Shown here piece by piece: positions 2,639 to 20,416 of a DNA stretch of 20,416 bases (positions are counted from its first letter, which is position 1; each line of letters starts with the position of its first letter). The DNA is from Crocinitomicaceae bacterium (GTDB lineage Bacteria > Bacteroidota > Bacteroidia > Flavobacteriales_D > Crocinitomicaceae). Below the pieces are notes generated by a model, which did no database searches, was not told the origin of the DNA, and saw nothing but the letters and a program-made list of their open reading frames with translations. Location of the stretch: the NCBI GenBank assembly GCA_037446475.1, contig JBBIIM010000010.1:17551-37966 (forward strand), given 5' to 3'. The translations under genes were made by a program, and so were the position numbers.

Positions 2639-3460
2639 ATGAAAAAACCTATCTACCTTGTTCCTTGCGATTTCTCAGTCATTTTCAAAAGTGCGCTTCG
2701 TCTGGGCATTGATTTGGCGGAATACAACAAAGGCTCAGTGATGATCTTGCACTTGGCCGCAAAAAAATCCGACAAAGCCGAATCCGAGCAAAAAATGAAA
2801 AAAGTGATGGCTGAACTCAAAGCATCGGAACTTGAATTTGTAGAATGGCGTGTGTTGGTGGGTGATATTTACGAAGACATTGCGCAAGCTGCCGAAATTC
2901 TCGACGCTTCTTTGATTGTAATGTCAACGCATGGTGCCAAGGGTATTCAAAAACTGCGCGGCAGCAACGCCTTGCGCTTGGTGGACAGTTCGTCTGTACC
3001 CTTCATGATTACGCAAGGTTCAAAATATGTGGACAAAATGAAGCAGATTGTGATGCCGTTTTGCGACCAAAAAGAAAGTTTGCAAGTGGCTCAAAGTGCG
3101 GCGGTCATTGCCAAACAGTTCAACAGCACCATCCACTTGGTGGGTTATTTGGACAAAAACGAGCAATCGCGCTCCAAGGCTTTGTCTCACCACAAAATCC
3201 TGTTCAAGTTTTTCTCCGATCAGGGCATTACCGTGAAAACACACAACATCGAATCTAAAGAAGACTATGAAAAGGCGCTTTTTGCCTATGCCAAGGAAGT
3301 AGATGCTGATTTGTATGCCGCTACTTTTTTCAACACCACCATCGTTTCGGGCATCAACAGCTTTTTGCAATCACTCTTGGAAAACGACGACGATATCCCT
3401 GTGCTTACGGTCAACGCAGAAGAATTAGGCGTGAGTTCAGTGACCTCCGTGATGATGTAA
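2639..3460 (+). CDS. Universal stress protein (UspA family), tandem Usp domains
   Basis: Two Usp-like halves, each with the ATP-binding-type motif region (IVMSTHGAKGIQKLRGSNALRLV and the second half HLVGYLD...DADLYAATFFN...). 273 aa is typical for tandem-domain Usp proteins. Confidence 0.8.
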   Translation: MKKPIYLVPCDFSVIFKSALRLGIDLAEYNKGSVMILHLAAKKSDKAESEQKMKKVMAELKASELEFVEWRVLVGDIYEDIAQAAEILDASLIVMSTHGAKGIQKLRGSNALRLVDSSSVPFMITQGSKYVDKMKQIVMPFCDQKESLQVAQSAAVIAKQFNSTIHLVGYLDKNEQSRSKALSHHKILFKFFSDQGITVKTHNIESKEDYEKALFAYAKEVDADLYAATFFNTTIVSGINSFLQSLLENDDDIPVLTVNAEELGVSSVTSVMM

Positions 3461-6121: not shown

Positions 6122-7585
6122 CTATTTCTGTTCTACGGCAATACGCGCTTGAATCAATCCTTTGTTCGTTTTGATTTCTACCAAATAAGTACTAGGCGCA
6201 AATTCGCGCAAATCCAATGTTTCGATATTTTTTGCTTGCATCAGCAATTGACCCAAATTGTTGTAAACAAGTACCTCAGCAATATTCAAATCCGCGGATT
6301 GGCTGAAATTAAAAATTCCCGGGCTTGGATTCGGATAAATCAAAAAATCGACATTTTCCGGTGCTTGGATGGACAAAATTTGATGTTGGGTCACAGTTTG
6401 CAAACTGGCCACGGTATTGTCCAATTTCAGTAAAAAAGCACTTGAGCCTCCCAGACCGATTCCGGTATCTTTGGTGTAGCCCACCAAAGCAAATCGTCCG
6501 AATGCATCGAGCGTTTTGATGATTCTTTTGGGATAAACCTTTGCCCCATAGGCTTGGTGCGAGTATCCACCGAAGTGCAAGAAATACGTTTGACGGAAAA
6601 TAGCAGAAAACGGCCCGACACTACCCACCAAAGCGGGATTGTCGTTTTGCAGCGCCAAATAAATCGCATCGGGATCCACGGCCGCTCCGGAAACATAAGT
6701 CTGCTGGGTTGTTGTCTCAAAATGTTGGATATTCAAATCTCCGTTTGTTTCAATCACCGCGCGATACGCTCTGTAATCGGCGCTTGAGGCTCCGGTAGGA
6801 TAATAATTGCCAAACACATAAATACGGTCATTGATCATTTCTACTGAACGAAATTCTCCGGTACCCACGCCGTAGAGGTAATCATTTTTACTCCAAAGCA
6901 CATTGCCGTCCAAATCGTACTTGGCCACCCAAGCATTGGAAACAGCTTCGCCCCATTTCCCTGCAACCACATAGGAATTGTTATCGAACAAAGCGCAAGA
7001 ATACAAAACCACATCGTCCGGTCCGGAATAGGTGTTTTGCCACACAACTTCACCCTGATTGTCCGTCCTCACGGCAAATCCGTCTTTGCCTGAATGACCC
7101 AAGCCTTCCACTTCTCCCACCAACAATACGCCTTCATCGGGAAGCAAAATGGCGTCGTGCAACATTTCCCAATTGCCGGCGCCGTAAGTTTTTTGCCATT
7201 GCAACTGAAACTGCTCGTTGAGCTTGACGAGGTAAAAATCAAAATTGGCATCGGTGGTAAAACTGTTGCTGATACCGGCCAACCAAAAACCAACACCGGG
7301 TTTGTGAAGCACCCTGAAGGCTTGGTCTGATCGAACTCCTCCAAAAAAATAAGAATTCAGAAAATTCCCGACTTTGTCCACATGGAGCAGCATCGCTTGA
7401 CTGGGAGCGTCACCCGGGCTGGAACTCGACCCGGCTATGTAGTACGATGAATCGCCCTGCATTTGAATTAAGTCATAGCCGGTGTCGTAGCCATTACCGC
7501 CGTAAGTTTTGTAAAAAACAGCCTGCGCTTTAAGGGATACAAGTGCAAAAGACAGGCAAAGACTGAAAATTATTTTTGTTGCCAT
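6122..7585 (-). CDS. SBBP-repeat beta-propeller protein with T9SS (Por) C-terminal sorting domain
   Basis: N-terminal signal peptide. Several repeats of the form KTYGGxxxDxGxDL...YYIAG / WQKTYG / WQNTYSG / LWSKNDY, which are SBBP-like blades. C-terminal approximately 80 aa with the T9SS CTD pattern (LIYPNPSPGIFNF...VLVYNNLGQLLM...STYLVEIKT). Confidence 0.7.
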   Translation of the reverse strand: MATKIIFSLCLSFALVSLKAQAVFYKTYGGNGYDTGYDLIQMQGDSSYYIAGSSSSPGDAPSQAMLLHVDKVGNFLNSYFFGGVRSDQAFRVLHKPGVGFWLAGISNSFTTDANFDFYLVKLNEQFQLQWQKTYGAGNWEMLHDAILLPDEGVLLVGEVEGLGHSGKDGFAVRTDNQGEVVWQNTYSGPDDVVLYSCALFDNNSYVVAGKWGEAVSNAWVAKYDLDGNVLWSKNDYLYGVGTGEFRSVEMINDRIYVFGNYYPTGASSADYRAYRAVIETNGDLNIQHFETTTQQTYVSGAAVDPDAIYLALQNDNPALVGSVGPFSAIFRQTYFLHFGGYSHQAYGAKVYPKRIIKTLDAFGRFALVGYTKDTGIGLGGSSAFLLKLDNTVASLQTVTQHQILSIQAPENVDFLIYPNPSPGIFNFSQSADLNIAEVLVYNNLGQLLMQAKNIETLDLREFAPSTYLVEIKTNKGLIQARIAVEQK

Positions 7586-8790
7586 GACAGTCTGAATAAA
7601 AGTGAATGACCAAAGCCCAAATTAAAAGCAGTGCCGAGCAAATCCTGCGTGCTTAGTCCTAGGTTGAATTGTCCGAAACGGTAATCGGCGTAAATACCCA
7701 AGCGCGCAGCACCGAATCCACCCAAATGTCCATGCATACCGGAAGAAAATTTATCACCGGCACGCCAATGCACACCAACATACGCTTGAGGCATGTACAA
7801 GACTTGCGTGTACACATTCAGACCGTAAAAGGCTTGCAATGATTTCGGAGAACTGCGATCCACGATTTTCGCCACTTGTACGAATCCGGGAAGCCATTGA
7901 CTGCTTGCACCGGTTTGTCGGACAATATTCAAACTGTCTTGCAAGGAAAATTCCGCGTTGTTGGCAATGTTCTCAATGGTTTGCAAATCAAATCCTGTGT
8001 AGCGGTAATTCGTGTCGAGTTGGTAAGAAAAAGTGTTTTTGTTCATGCGAACCAGCCCGATGTTGCTGGCCAAAACCTGAATGATTACCTCCTTATCTTT
8101 GACCTTGACGGGCATTCTCAAGTCCACATCTATTCCCAGACCCACACCCCGCAAAAACTGCGCGGAATTATTCCCCATGTACGAGCCAATCAAAATAATA
8201 TCCGTGGTGTCTTTGTCCGCGTTCTGGCGAAAAATACCGTTCATCAAATCAAAATTTTGGTAACCTGAAGCACCAATGAGATTCAGCGCAAAGGTTGATC
8301 TTGTCTTTTTGTCAACCACGCCGAAGCCCAACTTGTGGTGGCTCATTTGATAATATCGTGCGTCGGTCAAGTCAATGATTTCAGGCGTATTGGTATTTCC
8401 TTGTGACAAAAGGCGAAAAACATCACTGCGGTAAGACGTTCCGAAATACGTTTGATGACCCGCTGTTATCGCGTAACCCAAGTTCTTCTTTCCGAACAGA
8501 TTTTTCGCGTAATCGGTGTAAATCAAATCTGCATTTACAACAGCTCCCGAAAGGTTCAAGCCTTGGTTTTTCAATTGTTTTGTGGATTTGTCAATTTCAG
8601 CATCCGTGATGAATCCTCCGAAAAGAATTTTTCTACTCACCGGCGCCGCCAAATGGTTGGAATGCACCTGCCCGTTCGCAGAAAGAACAATTTCCCGTTT
8701 AATCGCTGTGGAGTCGAGCCAAATCGGGAGCGTTTGTTGCGCAAAAGTCGTGAAAACAAGAAAATAGCCTAGCAAAAGTTGAAGTCGCAT
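7570..8790 (-). CDS. Putative outer-membrane beta-barrel protein
   Basis: Signal peptide MRLQLLLGYFLVFTTFAQQ. Alternating hydrophobic beta-strand pattern throughout, Gly/aromatic-rich C-terminal half (GVHWRAGDKFSSGMHGHLGGFGAARLGIYADYRFGQFNLGLS). The 3' end overlaps the downstream T9SS cargo gene by 16 nt. Family not identified. Confidence 0.5.
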   Translation of the reverse strand: MRLQLLLGYFLVFTTFAQQTLPIWLDSTAIKREIVLSANGQVHSNHLAAPVSRKILFGGFITDAEIDKSTKQLKNQGLNLSGAVVNADLIYTDYAKNLFGKKNLGYAITAGHQTYFGTSYRSDVFRLLSQGNTNTPEIIDLTDARYYQMSHHKLGFGVVDKKTRSTFALNLIGASGYQNFDLMNGIFRQNADKDTTDIILIGSYMGNNSAQFLRGVGLGIDVDLRMPVKVKDKEVIIQVLASNIGLVRMNKNTFSYQLDTNYRYTGFDLQTIENIANNAEFSLQDSLNIVRQTGASSQWLPGFVQVAKIVDRSSPKSLQAFYGLNVYTQVLYMPQAYVGVHWRAGDKFSSGMHGHLGGFGAARLGIYADYRFGQFNLGLSTQDLLGTAFNLGFGHSLLFRLSWQQK

Positions 8791-8897
8791 GACGCAATGG
8801 GTTGTAGTATGGTTTTGCAAATATAAGGTTTGAGCAGGAATAAACGTCCGCAGGTCTTTCGTGGCAAATTCATTCTTCAGAGATTTGGAACTAATGC

Positions 8898-10730
8898 TTA
8901 ACGCAAGCCTTCATATACAGTCAGCCGGATATTGTCCATTTTAAAAGAACCATTTCCGGCCATCCAAGCGAAACTTTGAATTTCGTCGCGGGTCATATTG
9001 CGGACATCCGCGGAATAAAAAACATGCTCCACTTTGGTCCATGTATTTGCTCGAACATGGGGCTGTTTTTCAACCTCGATGTATTGGTCGTAGTAGGGTT
9101 TGCCGCGATGTAGCATTTTAAACACAACGCGAGGCAAGACCTCCTCCGGCTTACCGTTGCAATACACCCAAGCCTCCAGGCGGAAAATCACGTTGCGTTG
9201 CCTTGTCACTTCGGAGTATTTTACCACAAAGTCCTTGGAATAAATTTGCTCGGAATTTGCCTCAACGCCTTGCCATTCAGCACCCGCATCAGATTCAACA
9301 CCTTGCCAAACGCCCTCCACAACTCGAGCGCGAAGCACTTTTGAAATTTTCAAATTGTCCTGATTACCAGATAAACGGTCGAGCGCCGGGACGTTTTTGT
9401 CCACCAAGAGCATATTGTTAAACTCAGGATTCTTTGCTGTTTTGAGGAAGTGCGCCCAATAAGCTTCAGGCGTCATTCGGGACGGATGCAACAAGCCGTG
9501 GTGGATTTGCCAGGTTTGAAAAAGATTGAGCGCAATACAAGCCACAATTACAACCCCCGTAAGGACTTGCACCGGCCATTTTTTGGTATGAACCTCCTGC
9601 AAAAAGAAACCCGAAGGAATCAGCAAAACCAAGTAAGATTGCACCAAGGCCCGCTGCCCGAAAGATTCCGCATACCACCAACAGGTCCATGAGGAGAGCA
9701 CAAAAATATTGACCATGCTAAACACAAAAAGCGGCAGGAAATCCGGGCGATTTTTGCGTTTCATAAACCAAAAACCAAAAAAACTCAAAGCGAACAAAGG
9801 CGTGTAAACCAGCCAACCTTTGCGAGCGCTGAAAAGAAAATCCAAAGTATGCGGACTCAAAAAATCAAAGCCTTCACCGGCATTGTTGTAGGCATCCACA
9901 AAAAAATGTCCAGTAGCCAGTTTGTAATACACCAACTGAATTGACCCGATGACCATCATAACACCCAACACGAGCCACACGCGATTTTTATGCGCTTTCA
10001 TCCAAAGCCATTTTTGTTTGAGCGTCTCTTTGTTGCTCACATGCCAAAGTGCAGGAATTAAGATCATCAGCAATTCAGTGCCGCGGATAAGTGCAGCAAT
10101 ACCAATTACAAGGCCCAGACTTATGCTGTTTTTGAAATTAGGCGTTTCATGCCAGCCCTTTGTAAACAACAACAGCAGCGCGTAAAACAAAAACAAGTGT
10201 CCGTGAGGCATGGCCACCATAGCCGTGGTTGTAAATAAGAAGTTTGTTCCGGCAAACAACAACAGCAAAAGCAATGCAGTTAAGTGTTGTGAGAAATAAC
10301 AGAGCAATACTTTTCCGGCAAACCACAGTCCAAGCAAAACGTAAAACACATGACCTGTGATGATTGCCCATTGGTAGGGTGCAGAAAATCCATCCTGAGC
10401 GAAGCCGAAGGTCGGCGCCAAATGGTGTCCCAAAAAGAAAAACGGTGCATAAATCAATGCAAAGCCAAGGGGATATTTGATCACGTAATTGCCGGTGTCG
10501 GCTTGCCAAAACTGGTAATAAGTCGGCGTGGCGTTGTACTTCTCATTCATCGCAGTGAGCCAAGACCAATCTGTCAAGAAGGGATCCTTGTAAATAAAAT
10601 TGGCCGGCAAATGTAGGTAGGCACCATAGTTGTCCCACGACAGCACATTAACGGGGAAATGATCGGCAAGCGACAAGAGAAACCAGCAAGCAACAAAAAG
10701 AAAAGTAATATTGAAAACGTGGTTTTTCAT
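8898..10730 (-). CDS. Polytopic membrane protein, possibly a GT-C-fold glycosyltransferase-like enzyme, with a C-terminal soluble beta-sandwich-like domain
   Basis: About 12 predicted TM helices in the first ~440 aa, with a first-loop acidic/aromatic motif (SWDNYGAYLHLPANFIYKDPFLTDW). Final ~170 aa are hydrophilic (VVEGVWQGVESDAGAEWQGVEANS...NGSFKMDNIRLTVYEG), resembling a carbohydrate-binding beta-sandwich. Family assignment is inference. Confidence 0.5.
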   Translation of the reverse strand: MKNHVFNITFLFVACWFLLSLADHFPVNVLSWDNYGAYLHLPANFIYKDPFLTDWSWLTAMNEKYNATPTYYQFWQADTGNYVIKYPLGFALIYAPFFFLGHHLAPTFGFAQDGFSAPYQWAIITGHVFYVLLGLWFAGKVLLCYFSQHLTALLLLLLFAGTNFLFTTTAMVAMPHGHLFLFYALLLLFTKGWHETPNFKNSISLGLVIGIAALIRGTELLMILIPALWHVSNKETLKQKWLWMKAHKNRVWLVLGVMMVIGSIQLVYYKLATGHFFVDAYNNAGEGFDFLSPHTLDFLFSARKGWLVYTPLFALSFFGFWFMKRKNRPDFLPLFVFSMVNIFVLSSWTCWWYAESFGQRALVQSYLVLLIPSGFFLQEVHTKKWPVQVLTGVVIVACIALNLFQTWQIHHGLLHPSRMTPEAYWAHFLKTAKNPEFNNMLLVDKNVPALDRLSGNQDNLKISKVLRARVVEGVWQGVESDAGAEWQGVEANSEQIYSKDFVVKYSEVTRQRNVIFRLEAWVYCNGKPEEVLPRVVFKMLHRGKPYYDQYIEVEKQPHVRANTWTKVEHVFYSADVRNMTRDEIQSFAWMAGNGSFKMDNIRLTVYEGLR

Positions 10731-17207: not shown

Positions 17208-18821
17208 TTATTCTACAATTTCCGCGTCCTGGCTATTGTTTGGCTTCTCGCCTTTGTTTCCCTTTTGCTTCGGATGAACCGAATTGCCGTTTTCGGTGCT
17301 TTCTTCTTTGCCGGGCTGCGCCAAATAAGAAGGCAAATTCAATCCGGCAAGGTTAAACAAATCATTGAGCGGCGGCACGGATTTCATCAAACCTGATACA
17401 AAATTGGCCGTTGATGTGCTACCGTTTTCCGCATTACCCCCGTCCCAAACCGTAACTTTGTCAATCTTGATGTTTTTAACCGCATCCACTTGGGTTTTAA
17501 CCAACTCAGGCAACTTCTCAATAAGCAGCAACTGAAAGGCTTTGTTTGGGTCGCCGGCAGCGGCAGCAACCACTTGCTTGTAACCCTCTGCCTGTTTGGT
17601 AAGTATTTCGTACAAACCGCGGGCCTCAGCATCCATTTTTGCGAAAATCGCATCGGCCTCCCCTTTGGCTTGCACCCTGATTTTTTCTGCTTCAGCCTGC
17701 GCCTCTATGATTGCGCGTTGTTTCGCAATTTCCGCCGGAACCACAATATTCGCATTTTGCGTAGCACGCTCGCGTTCAGCACGCTGTGATTCAGCTGTTT
17801 GCTCCGCTTTATACGCTTCCTCCAAGGCTTTCGCTTGTTGCACTTTTTCTGCAGCAATCGCGATTCTAAGTGCCTCGGCCTCTCGCTCTCTTCTTTTCGC
17901 TTCTGAGTCCGCAATCTGTATGCGGGCTTCGTTTTCCCCTTGCACCGCAATCGCGTTGGCCTCGGATATTTTCACACGTGAGTCTCGTTCAGCTTCAGCC
18001 TTTCCGATAGATTCATCACGCCGTGCCAAGGCTATTTGTACCTCGCGATCTTTTTCGGTCATGGCAATTTTGGTGTCACGGTCTCGGTGCGTTTCCGCAA
18101 TCTGCACATCCTTTTCTCTATCCGCCATGGCTTTTCCGGTCTCTCCAAAACGCTCTTGTTCCGCAACACTTACCTTCGCTTCGTTAATTGCTTTTGCAGC
18201 GGCTTCTTTACCCAATGCTTCAATGTAACCCGATTCATCTTTGATATCGGTAACGTTTACGTTGATGAGTTTCAAACCAATTTTTTTCAACTCCGTGTCC
18301 ACATTTTTGGAAATGTTATCCAAAAACTTGTCGCGGTCGGTATTGATTTCCTCGATGGTCATCGTAGCAATCACCAAGCGCAACTGACCAAAAAGAATGT
18401 CTTTTGAAAGTTCCTGAATTTGATCCGGCTTCAAGCCCAACAAACGCTCTGCTGCCGAACCCATCGTGTCTTGATCCGTTGAAATAGCGATCGTGAAGCG
18501 ACAAGGCACATCCACACGAATGTTTTGTCTGGAAAGCGCATTGGTCAGGTTGGCCTCAATGGAAATCGGCTTCAAATCCAAATAGGCATAATCCTGAATC
18601 ACAGGCCAAATGAATGCTCCGCCTCCGTGAATACAACGCGCAGAAGAACCACCTGTTTTACCATAAACCACCAATATCTTATCCGATGGACAGCGTTTGA
18701 AACGGGATAAAATAACCAAAATCAACGCAGCCAAAACTACCGCTGCGACAACGATTAAAGTAACCGGACTGGAAAGTGGGGTTTCCATGTTGTCCAAAGA
18801 AATTTGAAGTAAGGAACTCAT
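17208..18821 (-). CDS. Flotillin family protein (SPFH/band-7 domain, YqiK-like) with a long Ala/Glu-rich coiled-coil
   Basis: N-terminal TM (VTLIVVAAVVLAALILVILS). SPFH core (ILVVYGKTGG...IWPVIQDYAYLDLKPISIEANL...LRLVIATMTIEEINTDRDKF). Extended EA-repeat region (AEQERFGETGKAMADREKDVQIAE...). C-terminal flotillin tail. Start trimmed to MSSLLQ (alternative METPL at 18788; the track ORF extends to 18866). Confidence 0.8.
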   Translation of the reverse strand: MSSLLQISLDNMETPLSSPVTLIVVAAVVLAALILVILSRFKRCPSDKILVVYGKTGGSSARCIHGGGAFIWPVIQDYAYLDLKPISIEANLTNALSRQNIRVDVPCRFTIAISTDQDTMGSAAERLLGLKPDQIQELSKDILFGQLRLVIATMTIEEINTDRDKFLDNISKNVDTELKKIGLKLINVNVTDIKDESGYIEALGKEAAAKAINEAKVSVAEQERFGETGKAMADREKDVQIAETHRDRDTKIAMTEKDREVQIALARRDESIGKAEAERDSRVKISEANAIAVQGENEARIQIADSEAKRREREAEALRIAIAAEKVQQAKALEEAYKAEQTAESQRAERERATQNANIVVPAEIAKQRAIIEAQAEAEKIRVQAKGEADAIFAKMDAEARGLYEILTKQAEGYKQVVAAAAGDPNKAFQLLLIEKLPELVKTQVDAVKNIKIDKVTVWDGGNAENGSTSTANFVSGLMKSVPPLNDLFNLAGLNLPSYLAQPGKEESTENGNSVHPKQKGNKGEKPNNSQDAEIVE

Positions 18822-18844
18822 GATCAAAAATTTATCGTTAATAA

Positions 18845-19411
18845 TTATAGTTTTTCCACAAGGCAAAGATTATCGTCAAGGATTTCAATCACACGGATCA
18901 CCGTGCCGGAATGCAGGCTCTCACCCTGCGTCACCGCTTGAAATTCACGTTGCGAACCTCGGATGCTCACTTGTATTTTGCCAATCCCTGATTTGTTCTC
19001 AGGAACGGTCAAATACACGGAACCTGTTTTCTGCAACGCGTCAGTTATTTTAACAGTATTGTCTTCTTGCAATTTGGTCATTTGCTTCATCACAAAAAGG
19101 AAAACAAAGAGGAATGCCGTTCCAATCAGAAAAGCGACAATGACCAAAATGGTTTTGTTTTCAAATAGATTCCAAAGCGAAATACCGCCCCAACTGAAGC
19201 CCAACAGGAAGTTGATTAGGTTTCTGAGCGAGAAGAGCTGGAAGGGCGTGTCTCCGTCCAAATCGCCACTGAAATCGGCTCCTCCGCCATCATTAGCATC
19301 CGCCCCAATGAATGTCATTACGGTTTGAATCAGAAAAATGACTGAAGTGGGCAGAGCCACATACCAGAAAACTCTTAATTCAGGGGCTGCACTGTCTAAA
19401 AACTCGAACAT
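18845..19411 (-). CDS. NfeD-like / YqiJ-family membrane protein (OB-fold C-terminus), partner of the flotillin
   Basis: Two N-terminal TM segments, an acidic Gly/Asp-rich loop (ADANDGGGADFSGDLDGDTPF) as in E. coli YqiJ, two further TM helices and a C-terminal beta-rich (OB-like) domain (GKIQVSIRGSQREFQAVT...GTVIRVIEI). It sits 23 bp upstream of the flotillin gene, the same arrangement as yqiJ-yqiK. Confidence 0.65.
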   Translation of the reverse strand: MFEFLDSAAPELRVFWYVALPTSVIFLIQTVMTFIGADANDGGGADFSGDLDGDTPFQLFSLRNLINFLLGFSWGGISLWNLFENKTILVIVAFLIGTAFLFVFLFVMKQMTKLQEDNTVKITDALQKTGSVYLTVPENKSGIGKIQVSIRGSQREFQAVTQGESLHSGTVIRVIEILDDNLCLVEKL

Positions 19412-19431: not shown

Positions 19432-19692
19432 TTAAACATGTAAGTTCATGATGTCTTGAAACAAATCGTAGCCTTGTTGCTCGATTTCCTCTGAGAAGCC
19501 GCGTAAATCCTTTTTGGAAGTTGCGTCGTTCAAATGCGCAAGTGATGCATCATGAAAATCGAGTATTCTATCGATAAGCGCATCGCTTTTGTCTTTCAAG
19601 TTGGGCATTTCAATCTGCACGTTGTAAGCTTCATCCACAAGGTGATTTACCGTTTGCTTCAACAATTTTTTGGAATCTCTTATACTCGCCAT
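19432..19692 (-). CDS. Small hypothetical helical protein (about 86 aa), first gene of the putative NfeD-flotillin operon
   Basis: Complete ORF, 20 bp upstream of the NfeD-like gene. Acidic with predicted all-alpha composition and no TM segment. Start taken at MASIRD. Confidence 0.5.
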   Translation of the reverse strand: MASIRDSKKLLKQTVNHLVDEAYNVQIEMPNLKDKSDALIDRILDFHDASLAHLNDATSKKDLRGFSEEIEQQGYDLFQDIMNLHV

Positions 19693-19880
19693 AACCAATT
19701 AATTTGAGTGTGAATTTAGGTATTTTAGCGGATGACCTATTCACAAACTCAAAATAAATTGAAAAGTCAATTTTTTAGAATAGAAAAGGGATTCAAGGTT
19801 TTGTTTTTACCTAAAGACAGCCGACAGCAACTCAAATTTGGAAGAAAAGCACAAAATCGGGCATTTTTTTTCTGGCTTGG

Positions 19881-19909
19881 TTGTGGCAATCGAAAAACAT
19901 CTATCTTTG
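19881..19909 (+). promoter_or_regulatory. Bacteroidota sigma-A-type promoter for tRNA-Phe (-33 TTG ... -7 TAtcTTTG)
   Basis: ttgtgg at 19881-19886 and tatctttg at 19902-19909, with the tRNA 5' end at 19926. The spacing and motifs match the Bacteroidota consensus. Confidence 0.45.
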
Positions 19910-19925
19910 CAGCCACCAAAACGGA

Positions 19926-19998
19926 GGTGATGTAGCTCAGTTGGTAGAGCAAAGGACTGAAAATCCTTGTGTCGGCGGTTCGATTCCGTCCATCACCA
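19926..19998 (+). tRNA. tRNA-Phe (anticodon GAA), no encoded CCA
   Basis: Manual fold. Acceptor GGTGATG/CATCACC (7 bp). D-stem GCTC/GAGC with loop AGTTGGTA. Anticodon stem AAGGA/TCCTT with loop CTGAAAA (anticodon GAA). Variable loop GTGTC. T-stem GGCGG/CCGTC with loop TTCGATT. Discriminator A. Confidence 0.9.
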
Positions 19999-20033
19999 CT
20001 GAAAATCAAGGGAGGCTTAGGTCTCCCTTTTTT
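19979..20033 (+). repeat. Direct repeat copy 1 (tRNA-Phe positions 52-73 plus 33 bp of 3' flank including the terminator hairpin)
   Basis: The 55-bp string ttcgattccgtccatcaccactgaaaatcaagggaggcttaggtctccctttttt recurs exactly at 20362-20416. Confidence 0.9.
20005..20033 (+). terminator. Rho-independent terminator after tRNA-Phe
   Basis: agggaggcttaggtctccctttttt has a 7-bp stem with a GC-rich base and a T6 tail. An identical copy lies at 20388-20416. Confidence 0.6.
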
Positions 20034-20038
20034 GTTGT

Positions 20039-20338
20039 ATGGAACATTTCGTTTACATCCTACAAAGTCAAGTCAACGGCGCTTTTTACAAGGGCTGCAC
20101 GAATGACTTGTATCGCAGACTCCGCGAACATAATAACCGTGAGGAAAAAAGCACTGCCCGTTATGCGCCGTGGAATTTGGTGTGGAAATGCGTAAAACCG
20201 AATAAAACAGAGGCTTTAGTTCTTGAAAAAAAACTCAAAAATCTATCCCGTGAAAGATTGACCCAATTCATCGATAAATATCCCGTAGAAGCTAGTGTCG
20301 GCGGACCTGACGTGACGGGTTACCGTCAGTCAGGATGA
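20039..20338 (+). CDS. Stand-alone GIY-YIG nuclease family protein (99 aa)
   Basis: N-terminus FVYILQSQVNGAFYKGCTNDLYRRLREHN is the GIY-YIG core (GIY ... YxG ... R ... H/N). A downstream conserved Glu (EALVLEKKL) fits the catalytic Glu. No DNA-binding extension. The last 15 codons and the stop lie in a tRNA-3'-half-like sequence. Confidence 0.75.
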   Translation: MEHFVYILQSQVNGAFYKGCTNDLYRRLREHNNREEKSTARYAPWNLVWKCVKPNKTEALVLEKKLKNLSRERLTQFIDKYPVEASVGGPDVTGYRQSG

Positions 20339-20361
20339 TGACCAGCGCTGCTGCGTCATCA

Positions 20362-20416
20362 TTCGATTCCGTCCATCACCACTGAAAATCAAGGGAGGCT
20401 TAGGTCTCCCTTTTTT
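20362..20416 (+). repeat. Direct repeat copy 2 (identical 55 bp; runs to the window edge and may extend further)
   Basis: Exact match to 19979-20033. It is preceded at 20295-20304 by gtgtcggcgg, which equals tRNA positions 44-53, separated from it by a 57-nt two-hairpin insert. Confidence 0.9.

Follow-up and report, generated by a model that had tools for sequence, protein, structure and literature searches.

A candidate selfish nuclease cassette at a tRNA-Phe gene in Bacteroidota: a GIY-YIG gene between an intact tRNA and its truncated, hairpin-interrupted copy

Free-standing GIY-YIG homing endonucleases associated with tRNA genes are described from phage T4, in which the Seg proteins, and especially SegB of the tRNA cluster, are inherited with their flanking DNA after cleavage of the recipient (PMC2330249); SegB is also reported to drive segmental tandem amplification of a tRNA region (PMC13096335). 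Here we analyse a small GIY-YIG nuclease gene lying directly behind a tRNA-Phe gene at the end of a 20,416-nt stretch from a Crocinitomicaceae bacterium (assembly GCA_037446475.1, contig JBBIIM010000010.1, positions 17,551 to 37,966 of the forward strand; the whole stretch is called the window below and numbered from 1), together with related loci in other genomes. In our assessment the odds are about even that the locus is a member, perhaps heading a series of such units, of a widespread class of small selfish, duplicative tRNA-gene cassettes in Bacteroidota. Like SegB, the nuclease is encoded by an intron-less GIY-YIG gene among or next to tRNA genes, and the amplification of the tRNA region ascribed to SegB parallels the arrays formed by the cassette. 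Unlike the cassette protein, which is a catalytic domain only, Seg proteins and I-TevI possess a C-terminal DNA-binding domain joined by a linker; moreover, Seg genes come without a duplicated, hairpin-interrupted fragment of their target, and the cassette family is chromosomal in bacteria.

Genomic islands inserted at tRNA genes offer a second point of comparison. Integrases of the T-loop sublocation, reportedly described by Williams in 2002 (Nucleic Acids Res), leave a second copy of the tRNA stretch that begins at the T loop and closes with the 3' end. Like such tyrosine-integrase islands and prophages, the cassette sits in the 3' part of a tRNA gene and would supply a replacement 3' end that keeps the tRNA intact, with the displaced original forming a repeat that starts in the T loop. 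Unlike them, it has no integrase, measures approximately 0.33-0.42 kb rather than kilobases, forms tandem arrays, and carries a hairpin module and, inward of the junction, a small additional piece of tRNA (a').

Further likenesses are more partial. Slx1 possesses a RING/zinc-finger domain and an Slx4 partner, whereas in the cassette protein only the nuclease domain aligns and the chain ends at 99 aa; for the UPF0213 proteins, we found no literature report of tRNA linkage, pseudo-tRNAs or arrays. Like IS200/IS605 elements with TnpB and omega RNA, the cassette is small, has hairpin ends overlapping the 3' end of a nuclease open reading frame (ORF), and encodes a nuclease that may secure retention or spread instead of carrying out the chemistry of transposition; unlike them, it has no HUH TnpA, no RuvC TnpB and no Rfam omega/HEARO match, and it targets tRNA genes with duplication of the 3' end. 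Penelope-like retroelements share a GIY-YIG nuclease, tandem copies of n plus a fraction and a structured RNA motif near the junction; the cassette differs in having no reverse transcriptase, no detected hammerhead or other known ribozyme, and prokaryotic hosts. By analogy, then, the cassette would work most like a free-standing homing endonuclease gene while being laid out like a miniature tRNA-targeting island. Our literature searches did not recover a description of this arrangement, although coverage of subscription journals was incomplete and a prior description is possible. What we describe is a putative selfish nuclease cassette with a defined, testable and apparently undescribed architecture, and a real chance of representing a new kind of mechanism.

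The tRNA-Phe locus and its interrupted second copy

The features of the locus, all at the right end of the window, are as follows.

19902-19909, + strand: Bacteroidetes-type -7 promoter box TATCTTTG, 17 nt 5' of the tRNA (scan with the consensus TANNTTTG)
19926-19999, + strand: intact tRNA-Phe(GAA) (ARAGORN; Rfam RF00005, 75.3 bits)
19979-20033, + strand: repeat copy 1, from T54 to the tRNA 3' end (19979-19999), then a spacer and a terminator (repeat search)
20008-20029, + strand: stem-loop of the intrinsic terminator in copy 1, with its T run at 20028-20033
20039-20338, + strand: GIY-YIG nuclease ORF, 99 aa (Pfam PF01541)
20295-20304, + strand: segment a', GTGTCGGCGG, in which the variable loop and the 5' strand of the T stem recur (tRNA 19969-19978), from reading of the sequence
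20306-20334, + strand: hairpin 1, CCTGAC-G-TGACGG / GTTA / CCGTCA-GTCAGG, with a bulged G (fold and covariation)
20335-20362, + strand: hairpin 2, ATGATGAC...GTCATCAT, whose final T is T54 of the second tRNA piece (fold)
20362-20416, + strand: repeat copy 2, tRNA 3' end (20362-20382) and terminator, ending at the window end (repeat search)

The downstream copy of the tRNA is a pseudo-tRNA, in which the ORF stands in place of the 5' half and a 57-nt insert (20305-20361) parts a' from the T loop, splitting the T arm between G53 and T54. Segment a' lies within the ORF tail: residues 85-99 of the ORF, for which disorder is predicted, arise where translation continues into the pseudo-tRNA and hairpin 1, and the stop codon TGA (20336-20338) falls at the start of hairpin 2. 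Given this disordered tail, and given that the ORF ends before the hairpins in several relatives, the hairpin module does not function as coding sequence. Folded as a single strand, the region 20290-20416 reaches -60.7 kcal/mol (z=-5.7), with the T stem closing a three-way junction. A covariance model of a', hairpins and 3' end gives one strong match in the window (20289-20384, 59.5 bits), its other match on the + strand being a weak one to the intact tRNA's own T arm (14.4 bits).

The sequence-only reading from which this work started had overlooked the hairpin-interrupted pseudo-tRNA, which we judge to be the most informative part of the locus. Its tRNA-Phe and its exact 55-bp repeats are borne out by ARAGORN, Rfam and the repeat search, and its lone 99-aa GIY-YIG gene on the strand of the tRNA by the ORF list and by Pfam. 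As an account of the duplication, 55 bp holds for the exact repeat but is too short for the second tRNA piece, which includes a further 10 nt at 20295-20304; similarly, the 383 bp that it placed between the copies is correct as the period of the repeat but not as intervening DNA, of which there are 328 bp of unique sequence. It had also allowed for an ordinary, complete second tRNA downstream; copy 2 instead has the ORF for its 5' half and a split T loop. The contrast that it drew with integrases stands as regards the missing integrase and the 328 bp, but the repeat alone does not discriminate, since T-loop integrases also duplicate the T loop to the 3' end.

Several other identities for the copy were considered and rejected. 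A complete tRNA-like fold was dismissed by eye, as upstream DNA supplies no 5' acceptor strand: there is no GGTGATG-like partner in 20034-20294, and in one related locus, L058 (loci of the comparison are given L numbers), only 4/7 pairs are possible. The three-way junction and a CUGAnGA-like string prompted the idea of a hammerhead or other self-cleaving ribozyme, yet the junction strands misfit the hammerhead core and Rfam finds none. A toga_FSE match at 20334-20363 is due to chance (24 bits against a cut-off of 40). There is no match to an intron family in Rfam that would point to a group I intron in the tRNA, and the first tRNA copy is uninterrupted. With Rfam 15, including its ribozyme and omega/HEARO families, only tRNA passes in this region of the window at E<=1; in 20 related loci at gathering scores, tRNA is again the only family found, the hairpin module itself being without one.

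The direct repeat is exact over 55 nt with a start-to-start period of 383 nt, and cannot be due to chance. Between its copies lies a single ORF, that of the nuclease, whose ATG sits 5 nt past the T run of the terminator. The final base of the window is the last base of repeat copy 2, and the repeat length of 55 nt is thus a lower bound. Short-read assemblers frequently use k=55 as their final k-mer, and from the coincidence of this habit with the window ending where the repeat ends, the assembled sequence probably broke at the repeat. Looking up the flanking 188-aa protein led to a 2-kb contig that likewise ends at the tRNA 3' end. An exact 33-nt pattern of tRNA end plus terminator had no match in metagenomes; a protein identical to the window nuclease is indexed on two contigs, for which an exact look-up returned no record.

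ARAGORN finds no tRNA in the window other than tRNA-Phe(GAA). Between 17461 and the window end, TATCTTTG is the only -7 box on the + strand in a scan with TANNTTTG, which we take to be the Bacteroidetes promoter consensus, and the cassette is consequently without any -7 box of its own; tRNA and cassette would appear to be served by this single box. No sigma-70-type site was found in a promoter check of the locus. None of the 20 ORFs of the window encodes an integrase, transposase or recombinase, and the 20 kb upstream of the cassette are ordinary housekeeping DNA.

The nuclease ORF matches PF01541 over residues 3-72 with 61.5 bits (cut-off 22.6; E=9.6e-17). Residues R27, H31, N32 and E63 are invariant across 26 homologues; Y6, Y17 and N68 are nearly so, and are invariant in a closer set of 12. 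By analogy with I-TevI, we presume these to include the active-site Tyr of GIY, Tyr of YIG, Arg, His, metal-binding Glu and Asn. AlphaFold predicts a folded domain over residues 1-83, its per-residue confidence (pLDDT) being >90 for residues 1-80 and <50 for residues 85-99, with the elements E3-10, E16-21, H24-32, E45-53, H56-67 and H71-80 in the beta-beta-alpha-beta-alpha-alpha order of the GIY-YIG fold. UPF0213 structures match by sequence over the whole domain (1zg2, E=1.3e-10; 1ywl, 2.8e-8), and 1zg2 is also the top structural match in Foldseek, which matched Slx1 as well. Identity to Slx1 is about 30%, the aligned part comprising residues 3-52 by sequence and approximately 75 residues by structure, while I-TevI is distant by fold (E>1). 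For the homing endonuclease family TIGR01453 the score, 23.2 bits over residues 4-39 only, falls short of the cut-off (56.05); PHROGs and PADLOC have no match. Neither Pfam nor the AlphaFold model indicates a domain past residue 83 or a DNA-binding domain. From these profiles and the predicted model, the protein appears to be a stand-alone UPF0213/YhbQ-like (COG2827) nuclease of the URI type that resembles Slx1 and not I-TevI. That Slx1 cuts branched DNA suggests, by analogy, a hairpin junction or a folded tRNA gene as the substrate.

Related loci at tRNA genes

The family comprises 1146 clusters at 50% identity (E<=1e-10), and only one doubtful match exists among 2.9 million viral contigs. 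A scan of species-representative genomes, performed with the alignment of 12 sequences since that of 26 was too diverse, found 344 relatives, 80 loci of which were taken for analysis. Hosts are mostly Cytophagales, Chitinophagaceae, Flavobacteriales and Bacteroidales. Members were also encountered in metagenome-assembled genomes (MAGs) labelled Citrobacter freundii (L064), Desulfatiglandaceae (L074), Patescibacteria (L068), Chlorobiota (L046) and Salinivenus (L073, L075, L076), reflecting either horizontal transfer beyond Bacteroidota or mis-binned contigs.

Linkage to tRNA genes is the rule in this family. A tRNA on the same strand ends <=150 nt upstream of the nuclease at 60 of the 66 loci with sufficient upstream DNA (Phe 32, Asp 16, His 6, Asn 2, and one each of Arg, Leu, Met and Ser), and the six loci without such a tRNA are variants of the same layout. 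The last 17 nt of the local tRNA, whatever its identity, recur past the ORF in 52/71 tRNA rows (<=1 mismatch). In the homologues L001 and L002 (62-65% identity), the order is that of the window: tRNA-Phe, terminator, ATG, GIY-YIG gene, then T-stem 5' strand, two hairpins, tRNA 3' end and terminator. Unit size is about 330-420 bp across relatives. Read across these sequences, the general layout is a nuclease gene between an intact tRNA and a truncated, hairpin-interrupted copy of that tRNA, and we are highly confident that this finding is robust at the level of the family.

A second line of evidence comes from differences in copy number and occupancy. Tandem arrays of 2-3 units lie inside long contigs (L042, L044, L058, L081, and L080 with 3 units in a contig of 3.1 Mb), and L095 and L134, whose flanks are 100% identical, differ in having 1 and 2 units respectively. 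Among 121 tRNA-Phe genes whose 3' half is identical to that of the window, 108 are empty and 6 carry the cassette, the nucleases at these 6 sites belonging to at least 3 distant clades. Truncated genes alone are found at 6 loci and a full plus a partial copy at 6 more, the nuclease ORF being intact in most loci, and solo remnants of hairpin and 3' end occur at L024 and L031. Such sporadic presence at a conserved target, together with decayed copies, is shared with homing endonucleases. The sequence-only reading had proposed a miniature mobile or duplicative cassette, or a unit of a tandem array, and the tRNA linkage, recurring 3' ends, arrays and empty sites of relatives support it; it had also considered that no empty-site alleles might exist, yet it is empty tRNA-Phe sites that prevail.

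The hairpin module varies with the nuclease lineage. In 24 loci of the Cytophagales type, hairpin 1 has 8 pairs with compensatory double changes, with 96% of cells paired; 0/500 shuffles reach the observed values, and slid controls fall to 0-2. Its bulged G and the stems CTGAC/GTCAG are conserved, and the homologue of hairpin 2, ATGCTGACCGAAGCGTCAGCAT, is nearly invariant in relatives. Within the loci searched, the covariance model has strong matches in two settings alone: where a nuclease unit ends on its 3' side, and in a few remnants beside the cassette-bearing tRNA (L024, L025, L029, L030). Flavobacteriales possess pairs of AT-rich hairpins at the corresponding place, and the Asp clade a single TCCC...GGGA hairpin. 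The kind of hairpin goes with the clade of the nuclease, and the a' and 3'-end pieces on either side agree with whichever tRNA is present; in these pieces the window has GGCGG..CCGTC, as against GGGGG..CCCTC in Cytophagales relatives.

The repeat starts at tRNA positions 51-61 or in other loops across relatives, with the following insertion points.

G53/T54: lineages at Phe, Arg, His and Met tRNAs, independent of one another
56/57, 57/58 and 60/61: further lineages with a T-loop insertion
Anticodon loop: L068
Replacement of the 3' strand of the anticodon stem and of the variable loop: lineages on Asp and Asn
After position 11 (D arm), mirrored: L039

Individual loci depart from this scheme in several ways. 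At L039 (2915-3363), an 11-nt tRNA-Arg 5' fragment and two hairpins lie upstream of the nuclease, with the intact tRNA downstream. At L068 (2773-3250), the nuclease gene is flanked by a 13-nt repeat that takes in the initial 6 nt of tRNA-Leu, and beyond the intact tRNA comes a copy whose anticodon loop holds hairpins. L030 carries a full-length tRNA-Arg copy (2745-2858) with its own promoter region, with hairpins after G53 and truncated past the T-stem 3' strand; this interrupted copy is directly upstream of an intact tRNA-Arg, behind which come the nuclease gene and another interrupted copy (2896-3317). It is the product expected of hairpins placed inside a whole tRNA, one that a simple model predicts to be lethal on its own. 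At L009, L014 and L019 (approximately 3254-3338), hairpin 2 leads directly into a T run as the terminator without any tRNA 3' end; the ORF is set off from the tRNA terminator by a 130-nt spacer, and the phase of the repeated unit is different. In the tRNA-Asp clade (L058 3250-3320, L077 3240-3320, L067 3265-3335), the pseudo-tRNA extends back to the D arm, and in L058 and L077 the ORF stops at the D-loop TAG, giving the C-terminus ...SSAG. In L042, TAA is inserted between G53 and T54.

Comparison among loci also indicates which parts travel with the cassette and which belong to the target. L038 lies at tRNA-Met and has a tRNA-Met 3' end past its hairpins, yet its a' retains the tRNA-Phe anticodon loop TGAAAATCC, located 22 nt from the hairpins as in the tRNA-Phe sisters L037, L040 and L043. 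This retained segment marks a move from tRNA-Phe to tRNA-Met, and it follows that a' and the hairpins belong to the cassette and the distal 3' end to the target. L030, at tRNA-Arg, is nested within the Phe clade. The two terminators bear no relation to each other in roughly half of the single-unit loci, and there the duplicated sequence reaches no further than the tRNA 3' end; DNA next to the displaced 3' end is unrelated, whereas that 3' end itself remains identical to the tRNA.

L003, L013 and L016 have a generic distal terminator, but the one ahead of the ORF is similar to hairpin 1 or 2. Terminators composed of a hairpin 1/2 sequence plus a T run were often noted at this place (L003 2949-2990, L006 2964-3000, L013, L015, L016, L018, L021, L027, L031). 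A hairpin-like left terminator is thus seen in some relatives (L003, L006, L013, L016) but not in the window, which has the right-end hairpins. Cassette terminator and hairpin module could be paralogues, or each could serve as a recognition site. The three units of L042 share one terminator, that of the last unit being different. As a general account, a simple target-site duplication of 3' end plus terminator is insufficient, given the unrelated terminators in half of the single-unit loci; the partial ORF fragments of a next unit that often trail the last unit count against it as well.

A possible mechanism and its competitors

The cassette, as we envisage it, would consist of a replacement tRNA 3' end with terminator, a promoterless gene for a nuclease of the Slx1/UPF0213 type, the a' tRNA relic and a lineage-specific module of two hairpins. 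Insertion in the T loop at G53/T54 would leave an intact tRNA at the left and displace the host 3' end to the right, behind the hairpins. Since the cassette has no promoter box and its ATG abuts the T run, we infer that nuclease mRNA would arise by read-through of the tRNA terminator. The nuclease could nick or cut tRNA genes at the loop that bears the hairpins, or cut branched DNA formed by the hairpins, and repair of the break would copy the cassette in the manner of homing, the tRNA 5' part and 3' end acting as homology arms. The repeated 3' ends would recombine with each other, which would homogenise them and build or shrink arrays, producing an exact repeat such as that of 55 nt in the window, where the repeats have either been homogenised or the unit recently duplicated. 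What we observe is the anatomy, the eight tRNA identities, the covariation of hairpin 1, arrays, copy-number polymorphism, empty sites, decayed copies and a tRNA switch; whether a homing-type mechanism underlies them is, in our estimation, an evenly balanced question.

A number of points weigh against this reading. Cleavage, transcript and transfer are all steps that we infer. The intact tRNA retains the presumed target, unlike in classical homing, such that the locus must either tolerate cutting by its own nuclease or prevent it; a pure homing model gives the hairpins neither an assigned nor a necessary role; and an 83-residue catalytic domain has no obvious means of reading sequence, its nearest relatives recognising DNA structure. 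Nuclease clades largely track tRNA identity and host order, which fits long vertical inheritance with rare switches as well. The terminators of the window are identical and of the ordinary type, and this locus cannot tell which copy came with the cassette. The empty sites come from diverse organisms, not proven close relatives of the window genome, and a syntenic relative was not found, no analysed locus matching the window flank. Finally, the mirrored loci L039 and, in part, L068 are explained by the model only through analogy. The gaps in mechanism, namely the self-target, the missing sequence reader and the role of the hairpins, keep three alternatives alive: transposition directed by structure, domestication and targeting by an RNA scaffold.

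A bolder formulation, which is possible but on balance doubtful, is that of a new class of minimal mobile element, in which a domain-only Slx1-like nuclease and its own conserved hairpin module (as folded DNA, or as an RNA scaffold with a tRNA guide) would target the universally conserved tRNA loops, mainly at G53/T54, and insert with duplication of the tRNA 3' end without an integrase, transposase or reverse transcriptase.

It is unlikely, though not far-fetched, that the hairpins and the hairpin-like terminator are ends recognised on single-stranded or extruded DNA, as would be the case in hairpin-directed, structure-specific transposition. The Slx1-like nuclease would then cut folded tRNA-gene loops and join the element, with the 3' end duplicated by staggered cuts or repair synthesis, following a logic like that of IS200/IS605 with a different enzyme. 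The protein is indeed nearest to structure-specific nucleases, and insertions fall in loops of the cloverleaf (T loop at 53/54, 56/57, 57/58 and 60/61, anticodon loop in L068, D loop in L039); furthermore, the pre-ORF terminator resembles hairpin 1 or 2 in several relatives, the stems share CTGAC/GTCAG and a conserved bulged G, and where terminators are identical, as in the window, the duplicated block spans the loop to the end of the T run. However, short target duplications are not seen consistently at the hairpin borders; half of the loci have a duplication that ends with the tRNA, which homology-based insertion fits better; and the hairpin of the Asp and Asn lineages takes the place of 11-12 nt instead of being an insertion. 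We know of no GIY-YIG enzyme that rejoins DNA, which counts further against transposition of this kind.

Alternatively, the nuclease may be a domesticated host gene, a small structure-specific enzyme co-transcribed with the tRNA, whose 3' untranslated region is a decayed tRNA copy with hairpins that stabilise or terminate the mRNA, and whose arrays and polymorphism arise passively by unequal crossing-over between repeats. We give this little credence, although the place behind tRNA-Phe and its upstream synteny are conserved in many Cytophagales, tRNA identity corresponds to nuclease clade, most loci have an intact ORF, and L009, L014 and L019 use hairpin 2 and a T run as a terminator in place of a tRNA 3' end. 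A host function is hard to reconcile with the sporadic distribution (6/121 identical tRNA-Phe genes carry the nuclease), with the at least three or four unrelated nuclease clades that occupy tRNA-Phe, with switches to Met and Arg accompanied by target-matched 3' ends, with decayed and truncated copies, with members in MAGs labelled as other phyla, or with a displaced 3' end that is identical to the tRNA amid unrelated neighbouring DNA.

A third and very improbable account would have the transcript of a', hairpins and tRNA 3' end act as a guide, the hairpins binding the nuclease and a 17-25-nt segment pairing with the template strand of the tRNA gene. This would confer specificity on a domain-only nuclease, comparable to TnpB with omega RNA at a transposon end, and it would agree with the co-variation of hairpin type and nuclease clade, with a flank that always matches the local tRNA and often ends exactly at its 3' end, with the guide-like length of the tRNA-derived segment, with the overlap between the module and the ORF 3' end (a feature of omega RNAs), and with a nuclease that has no DNA-binding domain. 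Nevertheless, an RNA-guided GIY-YIG enzyme is without precedent, the intact tRNA alongside would permanently expose the locus to its own nuclease, a displaced host 3' end accounts more simply for the match to the tRNA, mismatches in hairpin 1 have no clear strand asymmetry (G-U versus A-C) that would point to RNA, and the L009 subclade has no tRNA segment.

Two further explanations are effectively excluded. A remnant of an integrase island (attL/attR at a tRNA) deleted to one small gene would account for the direct repeat from T loop to tRNA 3' end seen here, which is what integrases of the T-loop class produce, but there is no integrase in the 20 kb upstream, and independent deletions cannot yield a unit of 330-420 bp that recurs at eight tRNA species, in dozens of genomes and in arrays. 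Likewise, the window ends exactly at the end of the 55-nt repeat, as a wrongly joined k-mer overlap would, yet the junction of hairpin and T loop at 20361/20362 runs from unique sequence into the repeat, and the same architecture is found in >50 assemblies independent of one another, among which are long-read contigs measuring 3.1 and 6.5 Mb.

Neighbouring genes, gene calls and implications

The following genes lie to the left of the tRNA promoter.

17208-18866, - strand: SPFH/Band 7 gene, overlapping the 188-aa ORF by 22 nt
18845-19411, - strand: 188-aa ORF without a Pfam match, conserved exactly in other samples
19432-19698: 88-aa ORF without a family, adjoining the tRNA promoter

Further away, at 6122-10730 (- strand), a run of three genes encodes a protein that ends in a sorting domain of the type IX secretion system (T9SS), a DUF5723 protein and a product of 610 aa without a Pfam match; these genes place the window in Bacteroidota and seem unrelated to the cassette.

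In public databases, gene calls of this family often begin inside the upstream tRNA (P0018, P0022 and P0028), the N-terminal extension (e.g. LVEQRTENPCVGGSIPS) being translated tRNA-Phe, and some of the calls P0043, P0100, P0121 and P0168 fuse two tandem units into one 'protein'. Such extended or fused gene calls are annotation artefacts of the cassette layout.

If our reading is true, thousands of small genes annotated as 'GIY-YIG nuclease family protein' beside the tRNA genes of Bacteroidota would be one kind of selfish cassette, which would have colonised an essential gene without a self-splicing intron or an integrase by bringing a spare 3' end and pushing the original aside. It would also explain the frequent breaks of contigs at tRNA genes, the gene calls that run through tRNAs and the fused tandem 'proteins'. 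A nuclease of 83 residues with a co-evolving nucleic-acid module would be a very small system for the study of structure- or guide-dependent cleavage, and possibly for engineering. Moreover, cutting of tRNA genes by the nuclease, if it occurs, may be a hidden cause of instability at tRNA loci and of changes in their copy number.

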